The notes: generated by a model not told the origin, from the letters alone. A stretch of DNA of 64,000 bases from Promethearchaeota archaeon (GCA_011364925.1 RDOA01000008.1:1-64000), one strand, 5' to 3'. Shown: positions 1,404 to 19,074, numbered from the stretch's first letter. Program-made: numbers and translations.

Positions 1404-1521
1404 CCGTGTGAGCGAGACGAGCGCACCCGTAGAAGACGGGTTTGGTGAGGTGGGGGTGTACGTGCTAAAGGCTTGAATGTGTCGAGGTGGATGATATTCG
1501 TTTCGAGATTGAAAGAAGGAA
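1404..1521 (+). repeat. Intergenic repeat family copy R1 (subtype A, 92-bp internal deletion)
   Basis: 1404-1465 matches 6887-6948; it then joins TAAAGGCTTGAATG...TTTCGAGATTGAAAG. Confidence 0.9.
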
Positions 1522-1606
1522 TGCGTGTGACAAAGTTATTGAAATTAACCCGAAGTACGAAAAAGCATTGGAATTAAGAGAAAAACTACTCAAAAATCGG
1601 ATTTAA
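1520..1606 (+). pseudogene. Orphan 3' fragment of a TPR gene fused to the end of repeat R1
   Basis: Reads NACDKVIEINPKYEKALELREKLLKNRI*, like the last TPR and capping helix of 1738..3945 (ALKLKPNFQDAIEVREQIL). Confidence 0.6.
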
Positions 1607-1737
1607 GATTATTTGAAGGTTTACTTGTTTTACAATACCGGTGAGAGCAAATCTTTTGAGCAACAATTATAACTGGAATTAGGTTATATAAATAATAAGA
1701 GCAAAAAATTTGACAATTTAGGAATCAGAAGATCAAG

Positions 1738-3945
1738 ATGCAAGAAATTTTTAATAAAACTACACCTAAAGTTCAAACTGAGAAGTTTAAAGAAAAAGAT
1801 TTGGTTAACTTATTTGAATACCACAAAGTTTCGGGCTCTGGAGTTCAGACAGATCCATACATAATTGAAAGTAGTGATGTTTTTCCTAAGGTTGATATAA
1901 TAGCAATTAAAAAATCAAATCTTTATATTCAATTTAGGAATCACGATTTAAGATCAATTAAATTTAAAAGATCATCAAATATAACAATTAAAAATTGTAA
2001 TTCTTCGAATCTGCAACTTCTTAATTGTTCTGAAGTAAAAATTTTCGATTCCACTTTCGATTTGCTAGAGATAAATAATTCCGTCAAAATTTCTATCCAT
2101 AATTCCAAGATTTCTTATCTGAAACTATTCAATTCCTTTCTAAACGAATTTGATAATTGTTCAATTAAAAGAATAGATAAACACCATAGCCCTGATAACA
2201 CCTTAAATATAGAAGGACAACTGGAAGATAAAGATAGAAAAAGTAATATATTCCAAAATAATGTCCCCTCGATAATAATCCTGTTTTTAGTATTACTTGT
2301 TTGTGGAGATATTCTTTTTTTTTCGTTCATAACGTACACAGTAACCCCCTATACTTTAATAATCATATCGATAATAACAGCTTCTATTATAAGTTTCATG
2401 GTTATTTCTGTTAAGGAAGCAATAAATTTACAAAAAAAGCTGAAAAAATATTATAACGGAAACATAGATTTGGAGTTTAATAATGGTAAAATTATCCTCG
2501 GTTGTGGATTAATAATATTAGGTTTAGTTTTAGCAAATTTATCAATTTATATTCTTTACACTGATCCCTTATTATGGTTACAAACCGAAATTACAACGAT
2601 TTATCTTCTCTCTTTAATCACAATTGCTTCTGTTATTATAACCATCGGTATAAACTCTATATTAAGAAATATGCGTTCTTTTAGAGATCGTTTTGTTAAA
2701 AAGAAAAGTCCGGTTTATCCTCTATTTCTACTCTATAACATCTTTTATGCTCTCATTTTGAGTTTTATGTATATAAGTGCTTTCCTTTTTAATTTAAATG
2801 ATGCTTTTTTAATTATCGCTCAGTTGCTACTCGCTTATCTTGTGATAAATTTTATCATCGCAGTATTTACAAAATTTAAACTTTCTAAATCTAAAGAATC
2901 TTCGGGGGCAACAAGATCTATCCTTGGGATATTCTTAGTGGGATCAGGAGGCTTTACTTTCCCTTTACTAAATTCTCTTCTCCCTGTTTACATCTATTAC
3001 CTTGGTTTGCTTAATTTCCCTCAAATTGCTATTTACTATTTCTTACTCATGTGTTCATCAGTTATTCTAGCTCTCTTCGGAATAATTTCCTTCCCTAAAA
3101 CTTCAAAATTTTTATCTGCTGTTCAATATAGCAAAAAGGAAAAGTATACTAAATCAATCAAATCCTTTCGATCTGCATTACGAACTGAACCATATAACGA
3201 AATTGGATTGTATAATTTAGGAATGACATATTACAAGAATGAGGAATATGCTAAATCAGTTGAAACTCTAAAGAAAGTTTTGACAATAAACCAAAACTCG
3301 ATACGTACCTTGATCGGTTTAGGATACGCTTTCACTGAGTTAGGAGATTTTGAATCTGCTATTAATTCTTGCGAAAAAGCGATCCATCTAATTAAAAATC
3401 CAGTTATATCAGTCTCAACTAAACTAAGCGATATAATTAAACAAACTTTCGCTCAACCAATTAAGGAGGAATCAGCGTGGCAAGCTTTAAGCTATGTATA
3501 TTCAGTTCAAAACAATTACGAGAAAGTAGTGGAAACAGCGAAGAAGGCGTTAAAGTTAAATCCTAGATATAAAGAAGCGTTGCTCTCTCTTGCATATGGT
3601 TATACTTATTTAGGTGAATATGATAAAGCAATTGAAGCTTGTAATAGTGCTCTAGATTTAGATTCTCGTTTTGGTTATACTTGGCATCACCTTGGAAGAG
3701 CTTATCACTTAAAAGGTGACCTAGACTTAGCATTTCAGATGTTTGAAAAAGCTGTTAAATTGTCTCCTAACGAACATAGAATTCGATTAAATCTTGCTAA
3801 ATTATTCTTAGATAAAAAAGAGTATTCTAGAGCCCTCGAAGAAATTGACATAGCTCTAAAACTTAAGCCAAATTTCCAAGATGCTATTGAGGTTAGAGAA
3901 CAAATTCTAACATTGATAAATGAAGACGACAATGTAAATAATTAA
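1738..3945 (+). CDS. Multi-pass membrane protein with N-terminal beta-helix-like repeats and C-terminal TPR array
   Basis: GSGVQTDPYII plus beta-helix-like repeats, ~8 hydrophobic segments, ~7 TPRs. Confidence 0.85.
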   Translation: MQEIFNKTTPKVQTEKFKEKDLVNLFEYHKVSGSGVQTDPYIIESSDVFPKVDIIAIKKSNLYIQFRNHDLRSIKFKRSSNITIKNCNSSNLQLLNCSEVKIFDSTFDLLEINNSVKISIHNSKISYLKLFNSFLNEFDNCSIKRIDKHHSPDNTLNIEGQLEDKDRKSNIFQNNVPSIIILFLVLLVCGDILFFSFITYTVTPYTLIIISIITASIISFMVISVKEAINLQKKLKKYYNGNIDLEFNNGKIILGCGLIILGLVLANLSIYILYTDPLLWLQTEITTIYLLSLITIASVIITIGINSILRNMRSFRDRFVKKKSPVYPLFLLYNIFYALILSFMYISAFLFNLNDAFLIIAQLLLAYLVINFIIAVFTKFKLSKSKESSGATRSILGIFLVGSGGFTFPLLNSLLPVYIYYLGLLNFPQIAIYYFLLMCSSVILALFGIISFPKTSKFLSAVQYSKKEKYTKSIKSFRSALRTEPYNEIGLYNLGMTYYKNEEYAKSVETLKKVLTINQNSIRTLIGLGYAFTELGDFESAINSCEKAIHLIKNPVISVSTKLSDIIKQTFAQPIKEESAWQALSYVYSVQNNYEKVVETAKKALKLNPRYKEALLSLAYGYTYLGEYDKAIEACNSALDLDSRFGYTWHHLGRAYHLKGDLDLAFQMFEKAVKLSPNEHRIRLNLAKLFLDKKEYSRALEEIDIALKLKPNFQDAIEVREQILTLINEDDNVNN

Positions 3946-3954
3946 TGTAATTTA

Positions 3955-4108
3955 TCGGGCAAAGTATTCAGCCTACCATTCTCAAACGCGCGAGTGTGTG
4001 GCACTCGAAAGAGGAGTTCGAGGTTCAGGCTTAGGGTGAGAGAGGTTTGTGTAAGTTTTAGACGATAAACATCTCGAGATTGAAATGATGAGGGGGTGAG
4101 TTCCTGAA
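3955..4108 (+). repeat. Repeat copy R2 (subtype B)
   Basis: Shares a perfect 48-mer TCTCAAACGC...GAGGTTCA with R3 and R5; starts 10 nt after the 3945 stop. Confidence 0.95.
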
Positions 4109-4118
4109 TGGGGGTTTG

Positions 4119-4877
4119 CTAATTCCAAATCTCATACCAAATAGCCATAAGTAGAAGCGGAGCAAAAAAACCTATAAGGGCTCCCCAGCCTATAAATTCA
4201 GGATTGATCGCCCAGCCTATCAACAATCCAATAAAACAAGTCACAAAGGATACAACAAGAAAAACGATTAAATTGCTTCCTGTTGAGGATATTTTCACTT
4301 GATCTGATTCTTGCTCCTTTCTATATACAAGTTTAAAGTCAGTGTTATCCGCGATTTGATATAGCTTTGGGTCTATATTTTTTTGATTCCTTTGTTCTTC
4401 GGTCATCTTGCGCAGTTTTTTCTTTTTTTTAATGACTTTAGAAAAATCAGAGTAGATGGGATTTTTTCCGAAGGCCATCGTTCTAAGCCAACGCTTATTG
4501 TCAAAGCTTTCAATCTCGTTAATTTGACATTTATATAAGTCGATCCATGCTAAATTTACAAGAGCATCGAGTCCTTTGAGTGTATGAATTGGATTTTTGT
4601 TGAGGACCAGGATTATCAAGTGCGTGAGATTTTCGAGATTTTTAATCTCGCTAATAGAATTATTAGCGAGTATTAGAACTTTTAGATTCTGTAGTGCTTC
4701 TAAACCTTCAATTTCAGATATTTGGTTATTGCTAAGGTTTAACACTTCCAGATTTTGTAAATCTTCGAGTCCCTCTATCGATGAGATTTGCGTAATTTTT
4801 TTCCCGGAAAGATTGAGGGTTAGTTGACCTTTTCTTCTTTTTGTTTTATACGTTTTATTTTGATAAATTACGGACAT
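4119..4877 (-). CDS. Leucine-rich repeat (SDS22-like) protein with C-terminal TM helices
   Basis: LEVLNLSNNQISEIEGLE repeats; paralog of 14125..14817. Confidence 0.9.
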   Translation of the reverse strand: MSVIYQNKTYKTKRRKGQLTLNLSGKKITQISSIEGLEDLQNLEVLNLSNNQISEIEGLEALQNLKVLILANNSISEIKNLENLTHLIILVLNKNPIHTLKGLDALVNLAWIDLYKCQINEIESFDNKRWLRTMAFGKNPIYSDFSKVIKKKKKLRKMTEEQRNQKNIDPKLYQIADNTDFKLVYRKEQESDQVKISSTGSNLIVFLVVSFVTCFIGLLIGWAINPEFIGWGALIGFFAPLLLMAIWYEIWN

Positions 4878-5030
4878 ATATTTTTATCGTCGATATTGCA
4901 TATAAAAGTTTTTCTGCTTTTTACTAGTTAAATCTATGTATTTGCTGGTAAATTCCATTTATAGTTTTTTTACGGAACGCTCATGGAAGTTCCGAATCAT
5001 TATGGCAGTATAGATCTATAAATAGGTACA

Positions 5031-5189
5031 GAGCTTTCGGGCGAGGTATTCAGCCTGCCACTCTCAAACGCGCGAGTGTGTGGCACTCGAAAGAGGAGTT
5101 CGAGGTTCAAACTTAGGGTGATAAAGGCTTGAATGTGTGAGCGGTGGACGATAAGTGTTTCGAAATTGAAAAAGGGAGTGTGTTCCGGA
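5031..5189 (+). repeat. Repeat copy R3 (subtype A)
   Basis: 5034-5153 differs from R5 at 5 of 120 nt; ends GGGAGTGTGTTCCGGA followed by a T-tract. Confidence 0.95.
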
Positions 5190-5335
5190 TTACTATTTTT
5201 TTTTATAATTTAGTGAAGGTTAATAATTTAGCGTTCTAATTTTATATTGATTAAGTGGCATAAAGTAGGTTTATTTAGAGGTGCATTTACATATTTAAGA
5301 AATCCCTTGGGTGGTGGCTTATCTTTGTAGGGATC

Positions 5336-5653
5336 ATGTTGTTAATCATAAGTAGCCTAATTTACGACCTATTAATATTTGTTTGGGAGATTTTTATAGA
5401 ATTTTATTGGGTTGTAATTTTGTTATCTGGGGTGGGTATTGGTAGTCTGGTTATAGGTGGGATAAAGCTGCAATATAACGCACCAAGCTGGATTGTGTTA
5501 ATCGGTGTAATACTAATTTTTATTTCGTTAATTTTAGCATCGCTTTTTATGAGTTTAGGAGGTATTTTATTGAGTTATGTATCGATACCGATGATACTTG
5601 TTGTTATAGGGCTTGTATGTATAGTAGTGGCAGGATTAATCAGAGAAAAATGA
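5336..5653 (+). CDS. Small hydrophobic membrane protein (true start may be slightly upstream)
   Basis: 3-4 TM segments; only gene between R3 and R4. Confidence 0.7.
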   Translation: MLLIISSLIYDLLIFVWEIFIEFYWVVILLSGVGIGSLVIGGIKLQYNAPSWIVLIGVILIFISLILASLFMSLGGILLSYVSIPMILVVIGLVCIVVAGLIREK

Positions 5654-5669
5654 ATTCTAGTTTAAATTA

Positions 5670-5735
5670 GTGAGGGTTTGTGTAAGTTTTGACGATACAG
5701 TTTCGAGATTGAATGTGGAGCGTTGTGTTCCGGAA
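5670..5735 (+). repeat. Repeat copy R4 (subtype B, short)
   Basis: GAGGGTTTGTGTAAGTTTTGACGATACAGTTTCGAGATTGAA...GTGTTCCGGAA. Confidence 0.9.
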
Positions 5736-5841
5736 CTTTATTCTCTTTCATTTTATATGTACCAATTAGTAATCAAAGCAAAATTATTTATTTCTAGATT
5801 GGTTAATATTATCTGAAATTTGTAGAGGAAGTGATGATTCA

Positions 5842-6309
5842 ATGATTTTGAGTGGAATCATTGGCACGATACTCTGGATTAGGTCTAGGCGTTGGTTCAA
5901 AGGCTATAAATCTCCATATCGGTTGTTAATTAGAATAATAATCCAGTTATGTATAGTTGGGCTAATTTCCATACTTTCGGCTACCATAGTCTTTTCTATT
6001 CCGCGTTCTTATGGAGATTATACGATATTTCTACCGTTATCTTATCCTTTCTTGGTGGCTTGGAATATCGATGGGTTGCTTCCTGTGTGGCCTCCTTATC
6101 AATATTATTCCATATCTGTATTTTTTATTCCAATTAAAGGGGGATTATTGAACTCAGAATATGGTTCATTTTCTGCTATCCTAGGGGAAATATTTTTCCA
6201 AAGTATGCCGCTTTTTCTGCTAACGAATATGGTCTTAACAGGGATTCTCCTTCTTCTAAGCGAATTACGGATTTTTCGTTTTAATATTAGTTCTAAATCT
6301 ATTCTATAA
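5842..6309 (+). CDS. Membrane protein, tandem paralog 1
   Basis: 45 of the first 50 aa identical to 6346..6786. Confidence 0.85.
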   Translation: MILSGIIGTILWIRSRRWFKGYKSPYRLLIRIIIQLCIVGLISILSATIVFSIPRSYGDYTIFLPLSYPFLVAWNIDGLLPVWPPYQYYSISVFFIPIKGGLLNSEYGSFSAILGEIFFQSMPLFLLTNMVLTGILLLLSELRIFRFNISSKSIL

Positions 6310-6345
6310 GTAAACAAAATTTTAAAAAAGGAAATGTATTAAAAA

Positions 6346-6786
6346 ATGATTTTATGTGGAATCTTGGGCACAATAATTTGGATTAGGTCGAGGCGCTGGT
6401 TCAAAGGTTATAAATATCTGTATCGGTTATTAATCAGAATAATAATCCAGTTATGTATAGTTGGGCTGATTTCTATACTTTCCGCTACCATCGTCTCTCC
6501 TCCGCGTTTATATGGTGAAATCTCAATTTTTTTACCCTTATCTTATCCAGTATTGCTACAATGGGGTATTTCTGGATATATGGTGTACCCTCCTATTCAT
6601 TATTACACAATAAGCGTGTTAGGTATTGATTTTACAGGTGGGGCGTTAGAATTTGGTGCTTCCGCTTACATTCAAGGGCAAATTTTTATGTATAGTATAC
6701 CGTTATTACTATTACTCAATCTGGTCTTTACAGGAGTTCTACTTCTTCTTAGTGAATTATGGAAGGTTTTTTTTTCTAAGAAGTAG
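6346..6786 (+). CDS. Membrane protein, tandem paralog 2
   Basis: Paralog of 5842..6309. Confidence 0.85.
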   Translation: MILCGILGTIIWIRSRRWFKGYKYLYRLLIRIIIQLCIVGLISILSATIVSPPRLYGEISIFLPLSYPVLLQWGISGYMVYPPIHYYTISVLGIDFTGGALEFGASAYIQGQIFMYSIPLLLLLNLVFTGVLLLLSELWKVFFSKK

Positions 6787-6860
6787 TTTAGTTTCTGAGC
6801 GTAAAAGAGTAAATTAATGAACTCCTGATAAATGAAGGTGCAGACATTATTCTCTTGATA

Positions 6861-7121
6861 AGTGCGAGCGAATGTGGTGAGGTGAACCGTGGGAGCGAGA
6901 CGAGCGCACCCGTAGAAGACGGGTTTGGTGAGGTGGGGGTGTAAGTGCCGAACTTTCGGGCGAGGTATCCAGCCTGCCACTCTCAAACGCGCGAGTGTGT
7001 GGCACTCGAAAGAGGAGTTCGAGGTTCAGGCTTAGGGTGATAAAGGCTTGAATGTATGAGCGGTTGACGATATAATGATTCGAGATTGAGAGGAGGGAGT
7101 GTGTTCCGGAGTTTCTACTCC
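6861..7121 (+). repeat. Repeat copy R5, the longest copy (subtype A); candidate structured ncRNA or non-autonomous element
   Basis: Contains all modules seen in the other copies; multiple hairpins; GC-rich against the AT-rich background; T-tract follows. Confidence 0.95.
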
Positions 7122-7231
7122 ATCTTCTTTTTTATTAAGCAATTTTATTTACTAGGGGTAATTTACTATGTAAAGTTTTAATTTCATATTTTCACAGAAC
7201 ATTCAAAATGTAGAATCAAGAGGGAGGAGAG

Positions 7232-7402
7232 ATGAGTGAGGAAGAGATGGATAAGGTTATAAGGCTGCTTATTGACGAAGTTGCTAAGTTAAAGGACGAG
7301 CATGCCAAATGGAAAGTTATAATCGAAATAATATTTTTAGTTTCGGTTTCGAGTCTGATAATTTCTATTGTCGTATGGCTTGATTTTTTAGGAATAATAT
7401 GA
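7232..7402 (+). CDS. 56-aa helical protein with C-terminal TM segment (not in the ORF track)
   Basis: GGAGG RBS; MSEEEMDKVIRLLIDEVAKLKDEHAKWKVIIEIIFLVSVSSLIISIVVWLDFLGII*; only ORF between R5 and R6. Confidence 0.7.
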   Translation: MSEEEMDKVIRLLIDEVAKLKDEHAKWKVIIEIIFLVSVSSLIISIVVWLDFLGII

Positions 7403-7410
7403 GAAACTCA

Positions 7411-7461
7411 GTTGGCAGACGATATTAGTTTCGAGATTGAAAAAGGGAGTGTATTCCGGAA
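7411..7461 (+). repeat. Repeat copy R6 (3' module only)
   Basis: GACGATATTAGTTTCGAGATTGAAAAAGGGAGTGTATTCCGGAA followed by a T-tract. Confidence 0.9.
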
Positions 7462-7582
7462 TTTACTTTTTTTTACTAATGGATTGATCCAAAAGAGTGA
7501 AAGAGACAGTTTTAACCACCAATACATTTTTTGTACAAAACTGTAATTTTATATAGTCAAACTATTACCATATTATTGAATT

Positions 7583-9220
7583 GTGAAAGATAATATAACG
7601 CCCGAAGGTTCTCCTTACGATATTCTTCTCCTAGAAAAGGATTTTTCTACAATTAGGCTCTTAACGAGATATTTTGAAAGTAAAGGGGTAACCAGCAAGG
7701 CTGTGGTAAGTGGAGTAAAAGGATTGGAAGAATTAGAACACAACACCCCTAGATTAATAGTAATGTGTATAATGTTACCAGATTATAGTGGGTTTGAGCT
7801 CTGTAAAAAGATAAAATCAAATCCAAAATTGAAACATATCCCGGTATTTTTTTGTACTGCATTCCCTGGTTCTGAAGTTGAAAAACATCTTGTTGAGACA
7901 AAAGCAAACGGGTATATACTTAAGCCTTTTAAGCTTAGCGAATTCGATGGAATTCTCGACTTATTAAATCTACCTAAAAGTTTTGTTTGGAGGAAAATTA
8001 ATCAATACATAACATTGAAATTGGAAAATGGGAAAACTCAAATTTACGTAAAAAACAAGTTCGGTAAAGATTCGGTATATGAGACTGCAGATTTGTATCA
8101 AAAAGAAATAGTAGAGGGTCCTTCTGCACGGCCCTTACACGAAAACCACGATATAAATCCAGAGCAGGAGTTTTGGGGTATTTGTTCTAATCTACAGGCG
8201 TGGTACGAGAACGGTTACGATACTCGTTTGCTGCATACTAACTTAGCATTTAATCTATTAAAAGCATTAGTTAAGGCAGGGGATCTAATTGCGAAACGAG
8301 TCTTTAAAACTGAACTTGCTTTTATATTTAACAATCTAGATGTTGGAAAATTCATTGCGTTAGATCTCTCAAATTTATATTTGAATACAATACCAAGTTC
8401 AATTCAAAACTTTAAAAATCTTAAAAAGCTTGATTTAAGTGGAAATCACTTATCCGCACTTCCGGATTCAATTTCTCATCTTCAATTATTGAGAGAATTA
8501 AATTTAAAACATAATGAATTCGCATCCTTTCCCGCATCTGTTCTAAATTTAAAAGCTTTAGAAAAGTTGGATATAAGTAACAACTTGATAACTAGAATTC
8601 CAGAAGAGATAACTGAATTAGAGTTAAAAACCATTAATATGAGTTCGTGTAACTTAACAGAGATACCAGAGATAATAATGGAATTAAAAACTCTAGAGGA
8701 ATTGAACTTAAGTGAAAATAAAACGATCAAACGACTTCCTGAATCAATAGGAAATTTGAAATCATTAAGAGTTTTAGAATTGAGGTGGCTCAGTTTAGAA
8801 GAACTTCCAGAATCTATAGGAAATTTAACTGATTTACTTAAACTAGATTTAACTTACAATTGGCTACAATACTTACCAGAATCTATAGGAAATCTTATTA
8901 ACTTAGAAGAGTTAATTTTATACGCCAATAATTTGAAAGAGCTTCCTAAATCTGTTGAAAATTTAAAAAATCTTAAAAAGTTAATTTTAACAAAAAACTT
9001 GCTAGAAGAACTTCCCAAATTTCTTTCTAATCTTAAAAATCTGAGAGATTTAACATATGAATATAACGAATTCAACAAACACTCTAAAGCAGAGGAAGAG
9101 CTCATTCAAAAGTTTAAAGAACGATTACAACAGGCTAAAGAAGAAAGATGGGATAAAAAGAAGAATAAAGCAAAAAAGAAAGAAAATTTGAAAAGTAAAA
9201 AAACCTTTAAAAGAAATTGA
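7583..9220 (+). CDS. Receiver-like domain + Loki-type linker domain + LRR protein
   Basis: N-terminal REC fold (IMLPDYSGFELC...ILKPF); EFWGICSNLQAWYE motif; ~10 LRRs (LPESIGNL). Confidence 0.85.
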   Translation: MKDNITPEGSPYDILLLEKDFSTIRLLTRYFESKGVTSKAVVSGVKGLEELEHNTPRLIVMCIMLPDYSGFELCKKIKSNPKLKHIPVFFCTAFPGSEVEKHLVETKANGYILKPFKLSEFDGILDLLNLPKSFVWRKINQYITLKLENGKTQIYVKNKFGKDSVYETADLYQKEIVEGPSARPLHENHDINPEQEFWGICSNLQAWYENGYDTRLLHTNLAFNLLKALVKAGDLIAKRVFKTELAFIFNNLDVGKFIALDLSNLYLNTIPSSIQNFKNLKKLDLSGNHLSALPDSISHLQLLRELNLKHNEFASFPASVLNLKALEKLDISNNLITRIPEEITELELKTINMSSCNLTEIPEIIMELKTLEELNLSENKTIKRLPESIGNLKSLRVLELRWLSLEELPESIGNLTDLLKLDLTYNWLQYLPESIGNLINLEELILYANNLKELPKSVENLKNLKKLILTKNLLEELPKFLSNLKNLRDLTYEYNEFNKHSKAEEELIQKFKERLQQAKEERWDKKKNKAKKKENLKSKKTFKRN

Positions 9221-9313
9221 TAAACCAATATATTTATACTCTGTTGTCTTTTTCAATATCTATATTAATAATGAAATTAGCTTTTTCGTTAGTCTGACAA
9301 TTTATAATTAACT

Positions 9314-9814: not shown

Positions 9815-9845
9815 GGAAGAGAAAATTCTTACTGTTACAAAACAG

Positions 9846-9877
9846 TTCGAAGTTGAAAGGAGGGAGCGTGTTCCGGA
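9846..9877 (+). repeat. Repeat copy R7 (3' core)
   Basis: TTCGAAGTTGAAAGGAGGGAGCGTGTTCCGGA followed by a T-tract. Confidence 0.85.
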
Positions 9878-10527: not shown

Positions 10528-11670
10528 TTACCTTTGAGCCTTAAAATAATCCAATACATTTTTAAGGGATTTTTGAACATCATTAACTTTGTTCATATCA
10601 ACCATGACAGTTTGGTCATATAATACAATGTATTTTAGTCCTACTTTAGCATAATTTTCTATTTTACTTATGATTTCATCTGAAGTCCCGGCAAATCCAA
10701 ATTCGCTGTATACATCTTGGGGGATTTTTTCTATGATATTCATCATTTGTTGTTTGTTGTATAAAGAAGGGATAAATTGAACTAAACCATCAAAAGAATC
10801 TCCTATAGGATGTGAAACGCCATATTTTTTAAAATGTTGGGAACCAAGAAATAATCCAGAAATTTTTAGTACTTCAGATTTGAGCATCCTTTTTACATCT
10901 TCGTTGTCCTCATCTATTATAAGGGGCGCAAACATACTAGGAATAAACTTATCTGTATCTCGCTCTGCTTTTTTAGCTGATTCTTGAATAACATTTAATT
11001 TTTCTTTATATACATTTGGCGAAGAGACATGAAATTTGCATGGATACCATCCATCTGCCAACTCTCCTGTCAGGTTTAGCATTTGTGGTCCATGTGCTGC
11101 TACCCATATAGGGGGATATTTATTTTTTCTATAGGGGTTCAATCCTAAGCATGCTCCTTTTAATTTCCAAATCTCACCCTCAAAATTTACATTCTTTTTT
11201 TCTTGCCAGAGTAATTTAATTATTTTTATACATTCCCTTAACCTAGAAACAGGTCTGTTGTAATCAATTCCATATGGAATTGTATTTAGATATTCACCCG
11301 CCCCCATTCCAAGGATTATTCTTCCTTTAGAAAGATTATTTTGAGCTAAAAAAAATTGAGCTAAATCTGCAGGGTGCCTTCTAAAACATTCGGTAACACC
11401 GGAAGCAATCTGTATTTTTTTTGTATTCATGACAACATTCGAAATTATAGTACACATATCGTAAAGATTATTAGGACTTTCTATAGATTTTGCGGCATCT
11501 ATAAACTCAGGATCCCATAGAACTTCTGGAAAAAAATTCATCAAATGATCATCGATTATGACACAGTCAAATCCAGCCTTCTCATAATTCTGAATCATAC
11601 TTAATCCGGCTTTAAATGGAACACCCTCAAAACTTGCATCAATTCCTATTCTAACATCAGATATATCCAT
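10528..11670 (-). CDS. LLM-class (F420/flavin-dependent) oxidoreductase
   Basis: DDH, RRHPADLAQ, GRIILGMGAGE, PPIWVAAHGPQML..ADGW motifs. Confidence 0.9.
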   Translation of the reverse strand: MDISDVRIGIDASFEGVPFKAGLSMIQNYEKAGFDCVIIDDHLMNFFPEVLWDPEFIDAAKSIESPNNLYDMCTIISNVVMNTKKIQIASGVTECFRRHPADLAQFFLAQNNLSKGRIILGMGAGEYLNTIPYGIDYNRPVSRLRECIKIIKLLWQEKKNVNFEGEIWKLKGACLGLNPYRKNKYPPIWVAAHGPQMLNLTGELADGWYPCKFHVSSPNVYKEKLNVIQESAKKAERDTDKFIPSMFAPLIIDEDNEDVKRMLKSEVLKISGLFLGSQHFKKYGVSHPIGDSFDGLVQFIPSLYNKQQMMNIIEKIPQDVYSEFGFAGTSDEIISKIENYAKVGLKYIVLYDQTVMVDMNKVNDVQKSLKNVLDYFKAQR

Positions 11671-11761
11671 AATCCTTTGCCCTCTTTTAAAAAAATATTT
11701 CTTTGAGAATTGAATTATTATATATATTCTTTCAAGTCTATTTAATTATTTGCTTGAAGAA

Positions 11762-11792
11762 TTTCGAAATTGAAAAGGGGGTGTGCTTCGGA
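11762..11792 (+). repeat. Repeat copy R8 (3' core)
   Basis: TTTCGAAATTGAAAAGGGGGTGTGCTTCGGA followed by a T-tract. Confidence 0.8.
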
Positions 11793-11956
11793 ATTTTCAC
11801 TTTTTTTTCGTTTTATTAGTAGTAGAAGGATCTTTTTACCAGTATAATAGCAAGGAATCTTTATATATGTCCTTAGTAGTAATCTATACTAATAAAAAAC
11901 ATACTTAGACATTAACTAACAGAGAAATAAAGCGAGAAAATATCGGATTTAATTAA

Positions 11957-13621
11957 ATGGAATCTAAAAAAGTAAGAGAGGATTATAAGGACTCCGATTG
12001 GTTAAAACATCAGTTTTACGATTTAGGGAGAAGTATTCAAGATATTGCTAACGAGCAGGGAGTATCTATGATAACGATAAGAAAGTGGTTGGATATGTCG
12101 GAGGAGAAGAAGCAAGAGCTGCGGAGGAAACCAGATGTGATGTCTCAACGAAAATCATCGATTTACAAAGGTCTATGGAGGTTTAATCAAGGAAACTTTA
12201 AGAAGGCAAATGAGATCTTTGCCGGAGCCATCAAAAAAAATCCTTCTAATGCGGAGGCATGGCAATATAACGCAATGACATTATACGAGTTAGGGATGTA
12301 TGAAGAAGCGTGTACTCAAATTAAGAAAGCACACGAGATAAATCCCTACTCCATCGAGATTTGCTTTGAATTTATAAAAATCCATTTGAAAATTGGTACC
12401 TATGGGGAATTGCTACAGTTCTGTCAAGAGAATCAGAAGTTAGATCCAGACAGGTTCAAATATAAGTTTGTCGAGGTTCACGCACGATTTAGGCAATACG
12501 CTCTCGCTTTGGAACAGCTTAACGATTTATTGACCACACGACTCGAAGATTCAGATTTACTGAGGGTAAAGGATTATTTGATGCAAGCAAAAAGAAATTC
12601 CAGTAACTATTATATACCTGGTATTCAAACGGGTTTATTGCCACATATTCCTATTGGAGATGAGATTATCTATAGCTCAAACATGAGGATTCATTGGGAA
12701 ATTATTATTCCATCAAGTGAGAGTAAGTGGGCCAAAGTATCAGATGTTCTATCAGATTTGTCGAGCATTTTAGATTTTATATTCGATATAGTGGATGATG
12801 CCGTCGAGGATAAGATTATTAGAGGAGAATTCTCTACTGATGTCTTGATGACCCACGAAGGAATCTTTTTCATGAAGACGAATCCAGAAGAAAAGAGTAA
12901 ATTAAAAATACCCAAATTTATCCCTTGGCAATATATTAAGGTGGAAAAAGATAGTACTCTAGTAGTAGAGGATTATCATATAAAATTTAACTTCAATCAT
13001 TTACCCAATTATATAAAATTTAACTTTAATTATTTACCCAATTATGAATCGAACTCTTCATTCGTCGTTCGGACGCAGAAATTCTACGAATATATTATGG
13101 CTAAGAGATACAAATATACACAGAAGTGTTTAGAAAAAATAAAAAAATATGTAAAAGATTTTAGAGACGCTGATGCTCAAGAATGGTTTAATAGAGGTAA
13201 AAACAGTAATATCTGGCACTCTGACTACAACTTAGGGAATCAATTAGCTGATGCATTTGATCCCGCCAAATTAAGAATGAGACACGGCGATAAAGAAGTG
13301 AGTGATAAAGCTGAGAAAATAATCCTTATGTATTTAAATGAGAACGAGGGGAAAGCATTTACATCCAGCAGCCTTAGAAAGAGAATCGGAGAAACTGTAG
13401 AAGATTTGAAAATCCTAAATTATGTAAACGAAAATCTTGAGGGTATTTTAAACAAGTTAGTATATAACGGTAAGATCCAATTAGAAACTCATAATTTTGG
13501 TAAGTTTTATTATACAATACATTGTCCTTTTTGTCATAAAGAAATTACTAAAGGAGAGAAAATCTGTTCATATTGTCATACATCACTAGAAGAAAAAAGT
13601 GATAAAGGTTTGAATGTGTGA
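11957..13621 (+). CDS. Mosaic protein: N-terminal HTH, TPRs, C-terminal Zn-ribbon
   Basis: SIQDIANEQGVSMITIRKWL HTH; TPRs; CPFC...CSYC; last 7 codons and the stop come from repeat R9. Confidence 0.85.
   Translation: MESKKVREDYKDSDWLKHQFYDLGRSIQDIANEQGVSMITIRKWLDMSEEKKQELRRKPDVMSQRKSSIYKGLWRFNQGNFKKANEIFAGAIKKNPSNAEAWQYNAMTLYELGMYEEACTQIKKAHEINPYSIEICFEFIKIHLKIGTYGELLQFCQENQKLDPDRFKYKFVEVHARFRQYALALEQLNDLLTTRLEDSDLLRVKDYLMQAKRNSSNYYIPGIQTGLLPHIPIGDEIIYSSNMRIHWEIIIPSSESKWAKVSDVLSDLSSILDFIFDIVDDAVEDKIIRGEFSTDVLMTHEGIFFMKTNPEEKSKLKIPKFIPWQYIKVEKDSTLVVEDYHIKFNFNHLPNYIKFNFNYLPNYESNSSFVVRTQKFYEYIMAKRYKYTQKCLEKIKKYVKDFRDADAQEWFNRGKNSNIWHSDYNLGNQLADAFDPAKLRMRHGDKEVSDKAEKIILMYLNENEGKAFTSSSLRKRIGETVEDLKILNYVNENLEGILNKLVYNGKIQLETHNFGKFYYTIHCPFCHKEITKGEKICSYCHTSLEEKSDKGLNV
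12978..13043 (+). repeat. In-frame 33-bp tandem duplication
   Basis: ATATAAAATTTAACTTYAATYATTTACCCAATT x2, encoding IKFNFNHLPNY / IKFNFNYLPNY. Confidence 0.9.
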
Positions 13622-13680
13622 GCGGTGACGAAAAAAATTTCGAAATTGAAAAAGGGAGTGTGTTCCGGAGTTTTTACTCC
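13599..13680 (+). repeat. Repeat copy R9 (subtype A)
   Basis: GTGATAAAGGTTTGAATGTGTGAGCGGTGACGA...TTTCGAAATTGAAAAAGGGAGTGTGTTCCGGAG. Confidence 0.95.
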
Positions 13681-13822
13681 AAACTTTTCTTTTAAATTTT
13701 TCATTTTGTTTTTTTTAGGCTTTCGGCCTTTAGTGTATCTTTTGGGGATAAATGCTAAATAGGTGGGTTACATTTGTGTTGTGTAATCAACAATTAAGAA
13801 AATAGAGGTGAGAGCAGTATAA

Positions 13823-14032
13823 ATGTCAAAATGTCCGTATTGTAAGGGGGATTTTCATTTAGAAGATTTTTTTGAAGTAGTTACTAAGGAGACGAAAAAA
13901 GGAAAAATTAGGGCAGACTTTCGTGATTTTAAGGGAGAGAGTTATAGTGTGAGAGGGTATGGGGTTAAGATGTGGGCTTGTCCTGGTTGTGGTTCGATTT
14001 TGGGGTTTTCAGAAGTGGCTTATGCTACTTAA
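13823..14032 (+). CDS. Small Zn-finger protein
   Basis: CPYC...CPGC; GAGGTG RBS; only gene between R9 and R10. Confidence 0.8.
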   Translation: MSKCPYCKGDFHLEDFFEVVTKETKKGKIRADFRDFKGESYSVRGYGVKMWACPGCGSILGFSEVAYAT

Positions 14033-14058
14033 GGGTAATTTTAAGGGTAAGTTTAGTC

Positions 14059-14113
14059 GAGTTTGTGTGAGAAGAACGTGATTATTGTTTTCGGGATTGA
14101 AAGGTAGGAGTGT
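14059..14113 (+). repeat. Repeat copy R10 (subtype B, diverged)
   Basis: GAGTTTGTGTGAG...TGATTATTGTTTTCGGGATTGAAAGGTAGGAGTGT. Confidence 0.75.
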
Positions 14114-14124
14114 AAACAAACTAG

Positions 14125-14817
14125 TTATGGAAGCAAGAATTTAGATAACGAGGTAGAGATTATAATAAAAATTACCACGGTAAAACATTGCAAACACTCT
14201 AAAAGGCCTTCAGCTCCACTTACTGCGAGGTATGCTCCTGCCCCCGATCCTTGTTCTGGTTTATATTTAAGTTTAAAATGAGTATTTTCCGCTATTTGCC
14301 ATAGCTTTGGGTTTACACCTTTTCTATTCCTCTGTTCTTCGGTCATCTTGCGTAGTTTTTTCCTTTTCGAAACTACTTTATATAAATCCGCGTAGATTGG
14401 ATTCTTCCCTAAGAACATTTTTTCAAGACTTTGTTTATTGCTAAAACTTTCAATTTCGCTTATTTTGCATTTAAAAAAGTCAATCTCTTTCAAATTTTCA
14501 AGAGTATCGAGTCCCTTGAGGATGTAGATTGGATTCTTATTGAGGATGAGCAATTCTAAATTAGTAAGATTTACGAGGTTTTTAATCTCAGTAATCGAAT
14601 TATTAGCGAGAATTAGAACTTTTAGATTTCGTAGTGTTTCCAAACCCTCTATCTCAGAAATGGAGTTATTACTAAGGTTTAATACTTCTAGATCGTGTAA
14701 ATCTTCGAGGCTCTCTATAGATGATATATGCGTAATTTTTTTCCCTGAAAGATTGAGCGTTAAGCGACCTTTTTTTCTTTTTGCTTTGTACGCTTTTTTC
14801 TTAAATAATACAGACAT
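14125..14817 (-). CDS. LRR protein with C-terminal hydrophobic tail
   Basis: Paralog of 4119..4877 over ~185 aa; different C-terminus. Confidence 0.9.
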   Translation of the reverse strand: MSVLFKKKAYKAKRKKGRLTLNLSGKKITHISSIESLEDLHDLEVLNLSNNSISEIEGLETLRNLKVLILANNSITEIKNLVNLTNLELLILNKNPIYILKGLDTLENLKEIDFFKCKISEIESFSNKQSLEKMFLGKNPIYADLYKVVSKRKKLRKMTEEQRNRKGVNPKLWQIAENTHFKLKYKPEQGSGAGAYLAVSGAEGLLECLQCFTVVIFIIISTSLSKFLLP

Positions 14818-15104
14818 ATTAAATTTTTATATAATAATACTATATAAAGGTTTTCGTGATTTTTACCAGTAAAAAAGAGCGAATATTACCAATATAACTC
14901 CGAACTTTTAAATAGGAGTCTGATCAGAGATCTTCTTTATAGTTAGTGGATTCCTGTATAACCTGTATAAAGGAAAATTTTAAAGCGTGAATAAGCCCTA
15001 ATTTTTAATCCAATTTTTTTCATAACTTACTCTAAGATTATGCAAGCCAAAACACTCTTTTTTGATAACTTATTTAAGAATTACCACTTTAGATTGAATA
15101 AAGC

Positions 15105-15157
15105 ATGTGTGTATGCGTGTCAGGCGTTTGGTTCGAAATCGAAAAACTATTCCGGAA
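15105..15157 (+). repeat. Repeat copy R11 (degenerate)
   Basis: ATGTGTG...TTCGAAATCGAAAAA..TATTCCGGAA. Confidence 0.55.
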
Positions 15158-15226
15158 TATAATCAATATAATTTTAAAGTACCCAGTCGTATAGGCACTG
15201 AGAAATTACTCATTATTTATATATTT

Positions 15227-15685
15227 TTAAAGATTTTCAACAATTTTTTTGGCAAAAGCCTTGCATTTTTCAAGTTCTCCATCAATGAGAGGTCCTTCTA
15301 TTCCTTTGACGGCAACTTGTAATCCATTCATGATTTTCTCTAAGTTTGGATTTTTTTCAATTTGCTTTTCCATTTTTTTTACTGCTCTTCTCATAGGACC
15401 GCCAGTATTTATTCCATCTCCACTATGCGTATCAAAAACCACTATTTTTGTACCCGCATCGACATCGAGAGAAGAAATAAACTTCTTAATACTCTTTGCT
15501 TGACTACTCGCATATGTAGGGGAGCCTATCACCAGTGCCTCATAATCCTTAATACGCTCGCTCTCCACAACATCGACTTTCATTACCGTGACGTCATTGC
15601 CCGCTTCTTTAATTACATCTCCCATAGTTTCAGCAGCTTTTTTAGTATTCCCATATTTAGTTTCATACACAATAAGCACTTTCAT
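15227..15685 (-). CDS. Flavodoxin family protein
   Basis: YETKYGNT, IGSPTY motifs. Confidence 0.9.
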   Translation of the reverse strand: MKVLIVYETKYGNTKKAAETMGDVIKEAGNDVTVMKVDVVESERIKDYEALVIGSPTYASSQAKSIKKFISSLDVDAGTKIVVFDTHSGDGINTGGPMRRAVKKMEKQIEKNPNLEKIMNGLQVAVKGIEGPLIDGELEKCKAFAKKIVENL

Positions 15686-15913
15686 AATTCTTCCTCTTTA
15701 TAGTTTTTATTACGATCAAATTCTTTTTGTATAAATTAGTCATTTTTTACTATAAATATTTTTTTCCTTATTTCTAAGATTCCATCATGGAAACCCTTCA
15801 TTGTATTTAGGATTGAATTAGTCATTTGTCTTATCGCCATATGCGTGGTCTACTGGGAATTTTTTGATTTTTGTGAAAATAGATTAAGAGGATGTCTTCC
15901 AAAGATGGAAGTA

Positions 15914-16060
15914 TTCGACAAAACTGTCAGCCTATCGCTCTCGAATGAGCAAATCTGTGTCATTCGAAAGAAAAGCCCGAGGTTCAAGCTTAGAGTGCTA
16001 AAGGCTTGGAAGTGTGAGAAGTTGACGATATATTTTTGGTTCGAAGTTGAGTAGAGAGAT
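15914..16060 (+). repeat. Repeat copy R12 (long, diverged, subtype A)
   Basis: CAGCCTATCGCTCTCGAA...CATTCGAAAGAAAAGCCCGAGGTTCAAGCTTAGAGTGCTAAAGGCTTGG...GACGAT...TTCGAAGTTGA, colinear with R5. Confidence 0.85.
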
Positions 16061-16365
16061 TGGATTTTATTATATTTACTCCCTCGACATCCCACTAAGA
16101 CCTTCTGTGATTTTCTGGAACAAGATAAGGAAAATTATTTTAACACGGATTTAAAAAGACCTATAAAGAATTGAATATTATCTTATTAAATTATAAAGAT
16201 ATGTTTTAAATTTAACTGAGTTTTAAATTTTCGATTCGCACATTGCGAGTTGTATGCGAAGCATATTCCGATTTTCACTTTGAATAAAAAGTTCAATTCT
16301 TTCTATTTTTAGGTAATCGGATTTATAATAGTAACTTGTACAAAAAACTAAAGAGTAGTAGAAAT

Positions 16366-16758
16366 ATGCCAAAGATGAAAAAAAAACAGGTAAAAAGAGG
16401 ACGGAGGAGTTCTACACCTGCTCCCACTCCGACAATCTCAAGAGTAAAAATGCCATATAGAAAAAATGGAGAAATGTTTGCGCGGGTGGTTGATATTTAT
16501 GGTCAAGAGCGGATGGGCGTGTATTGTGAAGATGGTAAACACCGTCGTGGAAGAGTCCGAGGAAAAATTAAAAAAAGAGTTTGGATAAGAAAAGGAGATT
16601 TAGTAATAATTAATCCATGGGATTTTGAAACAACAGTTGATGGTGAATCTGAGAAATGCGAAATATCTTGGAGATATTTACGCCATGAAGTCTCTTATTT
16701 AGAACGAAATAATAGAATTCCTAAATCTTTAGATATTAATAACATTCCAGTCTTCTAA
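16366..16758 (+). CDS. eif1a: Translation initiation factor aIF-1A
   Basis: GEMFARV...CEDGKHRRGRVRGKIKKRVWIRKGDLVIINPWDF; ATG at 16366 preferred over TTG at 16336. Confidence 0.93.
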   Translation: MPKMKKKQVKRGRRSSTPAPTPTISRVKMPYRKNGEMFARVVDIYGQERMGVYCEDGKHRRGRVRGKIKKRVWIRKGDLVIINPWDFETTVDGESEKCEISWRYLRHEVSYLERNNRIPKSLDINNIPVF

Positions 16759-16855
16759 AAATACCATTTTGAACTATATGAAAAGATAAGATTCGATCCT
16801 CTATTCTAATTTATTTTTTGTTCCAACTTCATGGGGATTTGCACTCGAGAATTAA

Positions 16856-16935
16856 TGTGTGTGCGTCATTCGAAAGAGGAATTCGAGGTTTAGGCTTATC
16901 ATGGTAGGGATTTATGAGAAAGTTGGCGATACGAG
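16856..16935 (+). repeat. Repeat copy R13 (degenerate)
   Basis: CATTCGAAAGAGGAATTCGAGGTTTAGGCTTA...GTTGGCGATA. Confidence 0.75.
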
Positions 16936-17003
16936 TGCATTTAAGGATATTTAAGTTGGCAAATAAAATATAGGAAAAGCATTTAATTATAAGAAGAAAC
17001 TAA

Positions 17004-17360
17004 TTGAAGCTTATGGAAGGGAAATATATTAGTCTCGTAACCTACAAGAAAAATGGGGATTCTAGAGCTACTCCAGTGTGGTTCGTGGAAGATGCTGAAA
17101 AACTCTATTTCGTAACAACTCAAGGAAGATATAAATTTAAACGAATAAAGAATAATCCAAATGTTAAAGTTGCACCTGCGAGCATGCGAGGCAAACCTAA
17201 AACCGAATATCTCGATGGAACAGCTCGAGTTCTCTCAGAGGATGAATTTATTCCGATCATCGCGTTGTTTAAAAAAAAATATCGCACATTCAGTTTAATG
17301 TTTAAAACGGACCGAGAGGGAGAAAAGAAACCATTTTTCATCGAAATTACCTTGAAATAA
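17004..17360 (+). CDS. PPOX-class F420-dependent oxidoreductase
   Basis: YISLVTYKKNG...TPVWF...KFKRIKNNPNV. Confidence 0.88.
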   Translation: MKLMEGKYISLVTYKKNGDSRATPVWFVEDAEKLYFVTTQGRYKFKRIKNNPNVKVAPASMRGKPKTEYLDGTARVLSEDEFIPIIALFKKKYRTFSLMFKTDREGEKKPFFIEITLK

Positions 17361-17442
17361 GCCTAGAAAATAATTAGAAGGGACCATATTATTTACGGTT
17401 TCGTTTTAGGCTCTATTGTAATCAAAAGGATTGCACTTGCCA

Positions 17443-17531
17443 GCGAGAGTTTACAACAATCAAAAGAGAAGCTCTCAGACTTAGTGTAATGAGGGCTTTA
17501 ACATGGAAGCCGTCGACGATAAGTCTTTCGA
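17443..17531 (+). repeat. Repeat copy R14 (degenerate)
   Basis: GCGAG..CAAAAGAGAAGCTC..CAGACTTAGTGTAATGAGGGCTT...GACGATAAGTCTTTCGA, colinear with R3. Confidence 0.65.
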
Positions 17532-17586
17532 TTAATAACGAAAATTTCATTAATCTTTTTATTGGTATTTCTCTTTTACTTTTATT

Positions 17587-18252
17587 GTGAATTGGAAAAA
17601 GAAAGTTTTGATAATACTAATTAGTGTTCTCGCGTTGGGAATAATTCTAACTCCTATAGTTAACAATTTTATTGTAATAAATTTTCAAATTTATTATATT
17701 ATAGATTACGATATAGAGGCACAGGATAGAGAGGAGATCATAAGTAGAGTAGAGACATTTAATTATAGCTCATATCTGAATCATATCCCCTGGAGTCACG
17801 ATTTATATAAAAGCTACATTGATGGGGATTATGTGATGTATTTGAAAAATAGCATTGAAAGGGACAATGGATTTCATTGGGCACTTGGGTATGAGCATTA
17901 TCTTAGATATTCATTTACGGCAAGTAATCGTTCCAGTTTGTATTTGACATATAATAATAATACGATCTTTGGCGTGGCAGATCAAGCAAACACCACCCTT
18001 TTATCTATTGATGATTATTTTTGGGACTATGTGGCGTTGTATTTAAATTTCACATGTTTATCGTATGTATATAGCAACAATAGCACGGTGTTATTGAAAA
18101 ACACGATTATTATCCATTTGAAGTTAGAATACGGTTATTTCTGTGGAAGTTTATGTGGGTTGTGGCATGATATTAATCAATATCTAGTTTTAAGTAATTC
18201 TTTAGATGTGATCGTGATTTTTATCTATTCTCTTTTTCCATCAGTTTCTTAA
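17587..18252 (+). CDS. Membrane-anchored hypothetical protein
   Basis: N-terminal TM or signal sequence; CGSLCG motif. Confidence 0.75.
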   Translation: MNWKKKVLIILISVLALGIILTPIVNNFIVINFQIYYIIDYDIEAQDREEIISRVETFNYSSYLNHIPWSHDLYKSYIDGDYVMYLKNSIERDNGFHWALGYEHYLRYSFTASNRSSLYLTYNNNTIFGVADQANTTLLSIDDYFWDYVALYLNFTCLSYVYSNNSTVLLKNTIIIHLKLEYGYFCGSLCGLWHDINQYLVLSNSLDVIVIFIYSLFPSVS

Positions 18253-18426
18253 AGCGATGAATATTATAAGACGATAGAAACTCTAAATTATAATTTAGAA
18301 AGATAGGACGAATTATGAGATAAAAACAAGAATATCTATGGGTATAAAAATACTTAATTTTGAATAGTTTAAAATATCACTTTAACTTATTTATTCCTTG
18401 AAATCAATTGTTGAAGAGGTTGTTAT

Positions 18427-18981
18427 ATGACCCAGAACGAGATTAAAACAGTGAGCTTGCTTGGGCTTAAAATAAATAGTAAAATCGCCGTAATTCTCTT
18501 TTACATAATTTTTCCATCAATGTTAAATTTATTCCCAATGCTGATCTATTATGGATTATCCTTTATTGAATACCCTCCCTTAGATTTATTTGCAAATCCT
18601 ATGTACCTCCTAGCTATAACGCTTTATATCGTGATACCACTTCTCTTAATTCCTCTTTTGATCTATATCTTGGTTGTGTGTATTTTGGCTCGGAAAATTT
18701 CTCGAGCTCAAGAAGTAGATAAGGTGCGCTGGTTCTGTTTTCGTTTAGACAATATTTCTCTCATCGTCCTTTTTGTATTATCTATCGTCAATCTTTTTTT
18801 CGACATTCAAGCATTATTTAGCTATATAGGTAATTTAATCACCTTTATTGGATTCTCACCTCCTCCACAAACCATACTTATTCAGATCTATACCTCGATG
18901 ATAATCATTTTATTTATGATGGGATTTTACATCTATACCTTGATTGTATGTGCGATGAATCGAAGGTTATTAAGGCAATAA
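18427..18981 (+). CDS. 4-TM membrane protein with internal two-fold repeat
   Basis: Hydrophobic segments; repeated L.I....YxLxVC pattern. Confidence 0.75.
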   Translation: MTQNEIKTVSLLGLKINSKIAVILFYIIFPSMLNLFPMLIYYGLSFIEYPPLDLFANPMYLLAITLYIVIPLLLIPLLIYILVVCILARKISRAQEVDKVRWFCFRLDNISLIVLFVLSIVNLFFDIQALFSYIGNLITFIGFSPPPQTILIQIYTSMIIILFMMGFYIYTLIVCAMNRRLLRQ

Positions 18982-19022
18982 ACTCTTTTGATAATCTTTT
19001 TTTTGCCTTTTTTGAGCAAATG

Positions 19023-19074
19023 AGGCTTAGAGTTTTAAGGGTTTGTGTAGTAGTTAGGCGATAGAAGATTCGAT
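19023..19074 (+). repeat. Repeat copy R15 (degenerate, subtype B)
   Basis: AGGCTTAGAG..AAGGGTTTGTGTAG..GGCGATAGAAGATTCGA. Confidence 0.6.

Follow-up and report, generated by a model that had tools for sequence, protein, structure and literature searches.

Truncated copies of the 23S rRNA 3' end separate gene units in a variable island of a Lokiarchaeia genome

Background

Tandem islands at the ssrA gene of Dehalococcoides are built with a fixed 20-bp repeat, one insertion site and integration modules, and many of these islands have lost the module (PMC3146451). Integrons and clusters of attC sites lacking integron integrases (CALINs), including archaeal ones, which are enriched in Asgard archaea, need attC sites and the integrase IntI (Ghaly et al. 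2022, PMC9668308). In Pelagibacter (SAR11), hypervariable region 2 (HVR2) lies near the 16S-23S and 5S rRNA genes, and its anchors are ascribed to tRNAs (bioRxiv 10.64898/2026.04.03.716430). An Asgard element described by Wu et al. is located between 16S rRNA and a tRNA and does not form tail arrays (PMC8813620). Here we describe an array found in a stretch of 64,000 nucleotides (the window) from a Promethearchaeota archaeon (GCA_011364925.1 RDOA01000008.1:1-64000), in which truncated copies of the 23S rRNA 3' end separate units that mostly carry one or two genes. A preliminary reading, made from the sequence alone and hereafter called the sequence-only reading, had proposed that these repeats belong to a new gene-cassette system.

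The array works like tandem accretion or an integron, and is a member of neither family. As in the ssrA islands of Dehalococcoides (PMC3146451), and in tRNA/tmRNA-type accretion in general, co-oriented copies of an RNA-gene 3' end lie downstream of that gene and bound variable blocks, with a fixed region at the distal side. However, the target in this case is 23S rRNA with about 150 nt of trailer, the copies range from 30 to 270 nt with neither a fixed crossover nor a constant att core, and the units, of one or two genes, show no integration module. With integrons and CALINs (PMC9668308) the array shares polarity, cassettes of one or two genes, a repeat near the stop codon, a gradient of age and reshuffling. 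Unlike them, it lacks attC R''/R' boxes, a folded site and IntI, its genes occur in both orientations with their own upstream regions, and its repeat is host rRNA. HVR2 is similarly hypervariable beside single-copy, unlinked rRNA genes and similarly shows an age gradient, but internal rRNA-tail copies around single-gene units are not described in the part of that report that is available. We regard the locus as a new form of the tandem accretion that occurs at the 3' ends of RNA genes. Literature searches, whose coverage excluded most subscription papers, found no rRNA-anchored cassette array.

Results and discussion

Identity of the repeats

The repeats are 5'-truncated copies that comprise no more than 140 nt from the end of the 23S rRNA gene, together with its 3' trailer. 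The longest (copy 5, Table 1) is matched in 29 of 36 genomes of the same genus, typically by a single long match of 81-91% identity, and where the contig extends upstream, a full-length archaeal large-subunit (LSU) rRNA (RF02540, about 2550 bits) ends within that match. Alignment to these relatives assigns window positions 6876-7006 to the last 130 nt of 23S rRNA and 7007-7135 to the trailer. In reads of sequencing runs X1, X2 and X5, 23S sequence continues upstream of 6876.

The conserved 3' module on which the sequence-only reading was built is explained by pairing with the 23S 5' leader, with which this strand forms the processing stem; a T-tract comes next. Its elements GACGAT, TTCGARATTGA and GGAGTGTGTTCC have their complements, ATCGTC, TCAATTTCGAA and GGAACATACTCC, in the leader of the source genome itself (G000, a 3.92-Mb Lokiarchaeia assembly; leader at C44:37406-37565), and the trailer-leader duplex comes to -80 to -93 kcal/mol, as against about -45±5 for shuffled sequences. 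When the stem was examined for the canonical bulge-helix-bulge motif that EndA cuts, two bulges were predicted, one of 3 nt in the leader and one of 4 nt in the trailer, and these are separated by more than 4 bp. Leader-trailer stems of this kind are archaeal rRNA processing stems (PMC7038931). The conserved modules of the repeat are the 3' strand of the pre-23S stem, but in this genome about 15 extra copies lie among protein genes. Leader-trailer energies do not discriminate between lineages. Beyond the stem strand lie a hairpin and T-tract that may act as a terminator; a terminator scan gave 8 sites, with 10.1 expected.

The repeat had been taken for an undescribed element. It is instead the 23S 3' end with its processing-stem trailer and T-tract, and matches a known Rfam family (RF02540), formally one of the outcomes that the sequence-only reading had named as counting against its proposal. 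An Rfam cmscan of the window alone gave no hits at E≤1, which is a false negative for LSU fragments of 130 nt. Folded alone, the longest copy does no better than shuffles (z of -0.57 as RNA and -1.57 as DNA), and therefore has no attC-like hairpin. The idea that it is a structured noncoding RNA is superseded, as its hairpins are 23S domain VI and the trailer. A group II intron tail and RNase P, both considered by eye, were dropped once the 23S identity had been shown. The 23S genes of this genus (L021, L024-L026, L033, L036) are about 3.33-3.37 kb long and contain a large insertion close to their 3' end, and the 20-kb loci around them lack 16S and 5S genes.

Number and distribution of copies

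Each of the 15 positions listed in the sequence-only reading holds a copy (12 solid and 3 weak), all on the + strand between 1.4 and 19.1 kb, and the listed copies were recovered by a repeat finder and blastn. A hidden Markov model (HMM) trained on 38 copies from other genomes, with no window sequence, detects 10 copies at a genome-wide E<0.05 (3955, 5031, 5670, 6861, 7411, 9846, 11762, 13599, 15914 and 16856), every one of them on the + strand of C101, the contig that carries the window. As for the others, copy 1404 is 97% identical to 6887-6948 across 62 nt, and copy 17443 reaches E=4e-4 under an HMM made from six other window copies. The weak copies at 14059, 15105 and 19023 have genome-wide E values of 4.6-12 with the outside-trained HMM, and 19023 reaches 0.022 under a different profile.

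HMM searches detected no further copies in the rest of the window or in the rest of the assembly, and a search of 19-37 kb found no degenerate ones. The sole other significant HMM match lies in contig C44, on the minus strand, and corresponds to the 5' leader of 23S. The impression that the remaining 45 kb hold nothing convincing is thus confirmed and extends to the whole genome, where copies cluster on one contig and one strand. Five of the six genome matches to GGAGTGTGTTCCGGA at ≤1 mismatch fall inside the array, with 0.03 expected.

Loss from the 5' side, previously suggested as the cause of the varying lengths, does occur, but copies have also lost internal and 3' sequence. Copy 1404 has an internal deletion of ~87 nt, and the GTGTTCCGGA end is intact only in 7 copies, from 5031 to 13599; it is missing from copies 1404, 3955 and 14059-19023. 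Intervals between copies are 0.3-2.4 kb and contain genes, and the repeats are 30-270 nt long; lacking constant short repeats with spacers of 25-50 nt, the array is not a CRISPR, as had been recognized.

Location between 23S and a conserved block

The 23S gene of G000 runs off contig C44 after about 780 nt and is preceded by the same genes as in relatives. The window contig starts 1.4 kb ahead of copy 1, and one contig from run X1 links a trailer to window position 1. Because an assembly gap lies between island and 23S in G000, we infer their adjacency in this genome. The variable island measures at least 37 kb, repeats being undetectable beyond 19.1 kb and the conserved block beginning at 36.8 kb.

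Relatives present both empty and filled versions of the site. Core-block genes directly follow 23S in G001, G007, G017, G019, G022, G029 and G035 (the G035 tail, which is at a contig end, is taken as native). Tail-copy arrays occur ahead of the core block in G002, G005, G008, G014, G031 and G034 and at loci L126 and L128, and after an assembled 23S in G008, G020, G034 and G032. In a core-protein tree, G000, G034, G031, G008 and G002 are placed together (support 90/92), separate from the empty-site genomes. The nearest named relatives are Promethearchaeota metagenome-assembled genomes (MAGs), at 80-87% amino acid identity and including SOKP01. The proposal of a cassette-like hypervariable island in an Asgard genome, growing by accretion at one site, is borne out. 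Elsewhere in G019, whose 23S site is empty, an orphan 23S fragment without a trailer is found (G019:C95, L070:8206-8409; -240..-10, where signed positions are nucleotides relative to the 23S end).

Gain, loss, reordering and decay of units

Comparison across species has shown that units are exchanged and reordered between genomes, with breakpoints in the repeats, and that they are gained and lost there as well, which is what the sequence-only reading had expected of close relatives. In G020, a nearly complete tail copy beginning at -122 (95% identical to the genome's own tail) precedes the gene that directly follows the real 23S in G034, and two other genes intervene, which points to insertion at the proximal end. 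Units F49/50, F51 and F52 differ in order between G008 and G002, and unit F63 has kept both junctions in G000 and G031 with different neighbours. An X5 contig from a relative at 92-96% joins position 15985 to 16892; this joint is precisely in register between copies 12 and 13, and the contig has no aIF-1A unit. Weaker evidence comes from further joints close to the edges of units (13598-16159, present in two studies, 14070-15210 and 10477-16190), whose intervening sequence is undefined. In L126 the flavodoxin unit has the opposite orientation with respect to the repeats, which argues for recurring independent captures.

The farther a copy lies from the contig start, the less it resembles native tails (Spearman -0.67, p=0.006, for 15 copies with hand-set boundaries). 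Several distal genes without repeats are repeat-bounded in relatives, which fits erosion of copies. Proximal copies are of the organism's own lineage (92-97% to copy 5), and typing of trailers to donor species gives mostly own-lineage or mosaic assignments and one suggestive foreign copy. An orphan copy in G008:C26 (L048:14264-14341, -63..+14) sits in a small insertion inside a core region and is 87% identical to the 23S of another lineage versus 79% to its own. Campbell integration through a cargo paralogue was considered for this orphan and rejected, the flanking 235-aa genes being unrelated.

In G034, G020, G005 and G002 (L051, L057, L058 and L060), one or two tail copies are present in small accessory islands away from 23S, which suggests that blocks leave the array. 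Very long open frames were seen at L061-L063 (G008:C23; >3500 aa, with one piece of 6610 aa) and L067 (G005:C91; 3232 aa), and these have no match in G000.

Junctions and candidate enzymes

The 5' starts of 44 copies are continuously distributed from -142 to +101, and therefore indicate no fixed crossover; they are HMM starts, which are imprecise within the trailer, and longer duplicates would break assemblies. This spread disfavours the undescribed site-specific system that had been proposed. The median distance from stop codon to repeat is 30 nt for co-oriented genes, and that from repeat to the start of opposite-strand genes is 162 nt.

Boxes of the attC type (RYYYAAC...GTTRRRY) are absent from all 15 copies on either strand, and no IntI was found in the G000 MAG assembly, in which the only PF00589 gene, a tyrosine recombinase, best matches archaeal XerA (1e-53) and lies on another contig. 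The earlier judgement that the array is not an integron stands. RVT_1, resolvase, Y1 transposase and IS110 have no match across the G000 assembly, and no reverse transcriptase (RT), serine recombinase, Y1 or IS110 enzyme is common to five array-bearing genomes. A family of retroelements or rolling-circle elements, also suggested from the sequence, is disfavoured by the lack of RT, Y1 HUH, serine recombinase and IS110 in the whole assembly. As regards fragments of retroelements or group II introns, neither RVT_1 in G000 nor, at E≤1 in Rfam, domain V/VI RNA in the window was detected. Neither a cognate transposase nor dispersal was found for IS200/IS605, IS110 or elements resembling miniature inverted-repeat transposable elements (MITEs), in searches that did not extend to IS91-type Y2 enzymes or target-site duplications. 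No integrase module lies beside an attL in five array-bearing genomes, and no integrase remnant was seen in the units examined or directly behind the assembled 23S of G008, G020 and G034. RadA homologues are present in G000. A strong DprA match (2e-55) occurs in the 23S-downstream island of G008 only (L022:2627-3637; G008:C3:77822-78373).

Possible origins of the array

We favour an additive gene island that is anchored at the 23S 3' end and depends on general recombination instead of a dedicated enzyme. A specific course of events, to which we assign a probability of roughly 0.55, begins with a microhomology-type capture by which the tail is duplicated, continues with RadA recombination within 23S and the repeats, and ends with trimming. 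At the birth of a unit, foreign or paralogous DNA would be joined behind the T-tract of the trailer and then rejoined through either microhomology or template switching, with a joint whose position varies over about ±140 nt around the end of 23S. The new unit would thereby be preceded by an intact 23S and followed by a 5'-truncated copy of the old tail, and the conserved 23S could be used as a homologous anchor by DNA arriving from relatives. RadA-type crossovers between repeats, or with 23S/trailer copies of related cells, would subsequently delete, re-insert or swap units. Copies would be shortened by deletions that reach as far as the stop codon of the gene upstream, since the T-tract that is kept can act as the terminator of that gene, and old copies would fade. 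Homology-facilitated illegitimate recombination and microhomology-mediated templated insertion add DNA without an integrase through one homologous anchor and one variable illegitimate joint, as proposed here. They are usually described for single events that delete recipient DNA, not for a standing array at an rRNA gene.

Several points weigh against this course of events. No recombination event or step has been observed, the compared genomes are different species with no before/after pairs, and the joint in X5 is a single contig from a 92-96% relative, aligned at 88% likeness. No circular junction is among the joints listed from contigs. In many copies no more than 30-60 nt are available, at 70-85% identity, a short stretch for RadA. 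Crossovers between direct repeats could not produce the inverted flavodoxin unit of L126, so that independent captures are needed, and DprA has no match in G000. The array-bearing assemblies are all fragmented MAGs in which an enzyme could hide in the gap behind 23S, and the age gradient is that of 15 copies whose boundaries were set by hand.

It is unlikely that a site-specific recombinase working in trans, either XerA of the host or an integrase encoded by an unassembled element with a 23S 3' target, inserts units tandemly and that later deletions blur the att copies and remove integrases. The architecture does equal tandem accretion at ssrA and tRNA genes, where many islands have lost the integration module (PMC3146451), and three long copies begin near -118, -122 and about -130/-142. 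G000 also encodes XerA, and its stretch right after 23S is unassembled. However, starts are continuous across 240 nt, integrase remnants are lacking from the units and 23S-proximal regions named above, the 15 copies have no attC boxes, pairing with the rRNA leader accounts for the conserved modules, and XerA is found in array-free organisms too. Distinctly unlikely is a passive by-product, namely local duplications and deletions at a fragile site after a highly transcribed gene, leaving repeats that move no genes. Although the own-lineage character of proximal copies, an island G+C content (32.6%) equal to that of the genome (33.0%) and the paralogues that some island genes have elsewhere in G000 agree with such an origin, it accommodates poorly the cross-species units with breakpoints inside repeats and changed order, the unit lost in register on the X5 contig, the lack of a close G000 paralogue for most unit genes, and the orphan copy of G008, which resembles the 23S of another lineage (87%) more than that of its own (79%).

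Capture through RNA, in which pre-23S transcripts (spliced or read-through) or chimeras of mRNA and trailer are recopied into DNA, would explain 3' anchoring with 5' truncation, the very short stop-to-repeat distances, and the use of a pre-rRNA segment that is highly transcribed and has a stem resembling a bulge-helix-bulge (PMC7038931). We nonetheless consider it improbable: RT is lacking in G000, G014 and G031, 19 of 43 junctions follow an opposite-strand gene whose upstream region is retained, units contain intergenic DNA and divergent gene pairs, and copies retain sequence to the T-tract and past it. An independent non-autonomous mobile element (MITE, Helitron-like or retroposon) or an assembly artefact is largely refuted and highly improbable. 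The repeat is the rRNA tail itself, copies are mutually diverged, and in G000 they are neither dispersed nor found on the minus strand. A few relatives do have one or two copies in small islands off 23S and contig breaks are frequent at repeats, but independent X1 and X2 contigs cross units into repeats with 0-11 differences.

Occurrence in other Asgard archaea

We surveyed 36 further Asgard 23S loci with ≥3 kb downstream by self-search with each genome's own 23S end. Besides f1-g1, co-oriented 23S-end copies were present in three other families, f12 (4 genomes), f23 (2) and f25 (1), and all 16 of these copies are in the rRNA orientation. None was detected in f8, f10, f13, f18, f21, f22 or two other f1 genera, two short distal matches being disregarded. 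In f2, no array occurs within 20 kb of six complete 23S loci in three complete genomes, and G050, a complete f2 genome, has a single 150-nt duplicate of the distal trailer (83%) at 4.7 kb behind 23S (L043:5264-5403).

Gene content of the island

The cargo was originally described as mostly tetratricopeptide repeat (TPR), leucine-rich repeat (LRR), membrane and Zn-finger proteins. Such genes are indeed found, but so are enzymes and a second aIF-1A (Table 1). The two tandem membrane protein genes at 5842-6786 are 87% identical in nucleotide sequence at their 5' ends, having been duplicated without a repeat between them. In the array of G014, the second aIF-1A gene is present with no repeat directly upstream.

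The distal island encodes two Rag/Arf-like small GTPase paralogues (25145-26119 and 33888-34853; 71% amino acid identity). The homologue in L128 (85% nucleotide identity) has 23S-tail copies on both flanks. Also in the distal island, positions 19182-21622 hold a GH16-family gene followed by two genes that appear to encode split alpha and beta subunits of L-serine dehydratase.

Table 1. Repeat copies and gene units of the island (window positions; signed numbers are nucleotides relative to the 23S end).
Feature	Position	Strand	Remarks
TPR protein, first assembled unit	1-1356	-	runs off contig
Copy 1	1404-1526	+	23S -118..-54 joined through internal deletion to trailer +33..about +100
Membrane + TPR protein, 735 aa	1738-3945	+	
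Copy 2	3955-4109	+	starts at -49 in 23S; 10 nt past stop codon of TPR gene
LRR protein with membrane tail	4119-4877	-	paralogue at 14125-14817 (59% aa)
Copy 3	5024-5209	+	-62..+143; stem strand and T-tract intact
Membrane protein, 105 aa	5336-5653	+	repeat-bounded unit also in G031, with different neighbours
Copy 4	5656-5753	+	trailer only; starts at stop codon of upstream gene; identical junction in G031
Tandem pair of paralogous membrane proteins, 155 and 146 aa	5842-6786	+	no intervening repeat
Copy 5 (longest)	6864-7135	+	23S domain VI end (about -140; clear at 6876-7006), full trailer, GGAGT/ACTCC hairpin, T-tract
Membrane peptide open reading frame, 56 aa	7232-7402	+	
Copy 6	7413-7477	+	distal trailer
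Receiver-domain + LRR protein (545 aa); 166-aa protein	7583-9814	+	166-aa protein has no Pfam family
Copy 7	9843-9897	+	distal trailer
DUF6011 Zn-finger gene (+), luciferase-like monooxygenase (-)	10009-11670		
Copy 8	11760-11808	+	distal trailer
TPR + Zn-ribbon protein, 554 aa	11957-13621	+	
Copy 9	13598-13692	+	trailer +31..+145; provides final codons and stop of 554-aa reading frame
Cys-rich protein, 69 aa	13823-14032	+	repeat-bounded unit also in G031 (twice) and G034
Copy 10	14057-14113	+	weak, decayed; E 0.076 in window
LRR protein	14125-14817	-	
Copy 11	15089-15160	+	weak, decayed; E 0.2 in window
Flavodoxin	15227-15685	-	repeat-bounded in L126, opposite orientation
Copy 12	15927-16065	+	-36..+95, decayed
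Second aIF-1A	16336-16758	+	67% to copy on contig C53; unit missing in register on run X5 contig
Copy 13	16859-16936	+	-10..+67; in register (906 nt) with copy 12
PNPOx-like gene and two membrane/secreted proteins, last two units	17004-18981	+	
Copy 14	17443-17531	+	decayed
Copy 15	19023-19080	+	weak
Distal island, without repeats	19100-36800		several genes form units bounded by repeats in relatives
Conserved core block (ARPP-1-domain gene, acyl-CoA ligase, others)	36819-47500		end of island

Conclusions

The array marks a defined gene-gain hotspot in Asgard archaea that mobile-element finders overlook, because it has no integrase, attC or tRNA and Rfam missed its fragments. The hotspot has collected genes for interaction-domain proteins and an additional aIF-1A, and its distal part holds paralogues of Rag/Arf-like GTPases. 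It suggests a reason for the frequent 23S breaks in assemblies of this genus and calls for caution about orphan '23S fragments'. The mechanism may be ordinary recombination. We are doubtful of a more far-reaching interpretation, in which several Asgard lineages possess an integrase-free, selected, standing capture platform. The 23S tail would then serve as a reusable att-like site and terminator, units would move as interspecies circles, and the rRNA promoter or the pre-rRNA processing machinery would have a part in the expression or creation of cassettes. If true, such a platform would supply the genome with TPR, LRR, small-GTPase and translation-factor paralogues.

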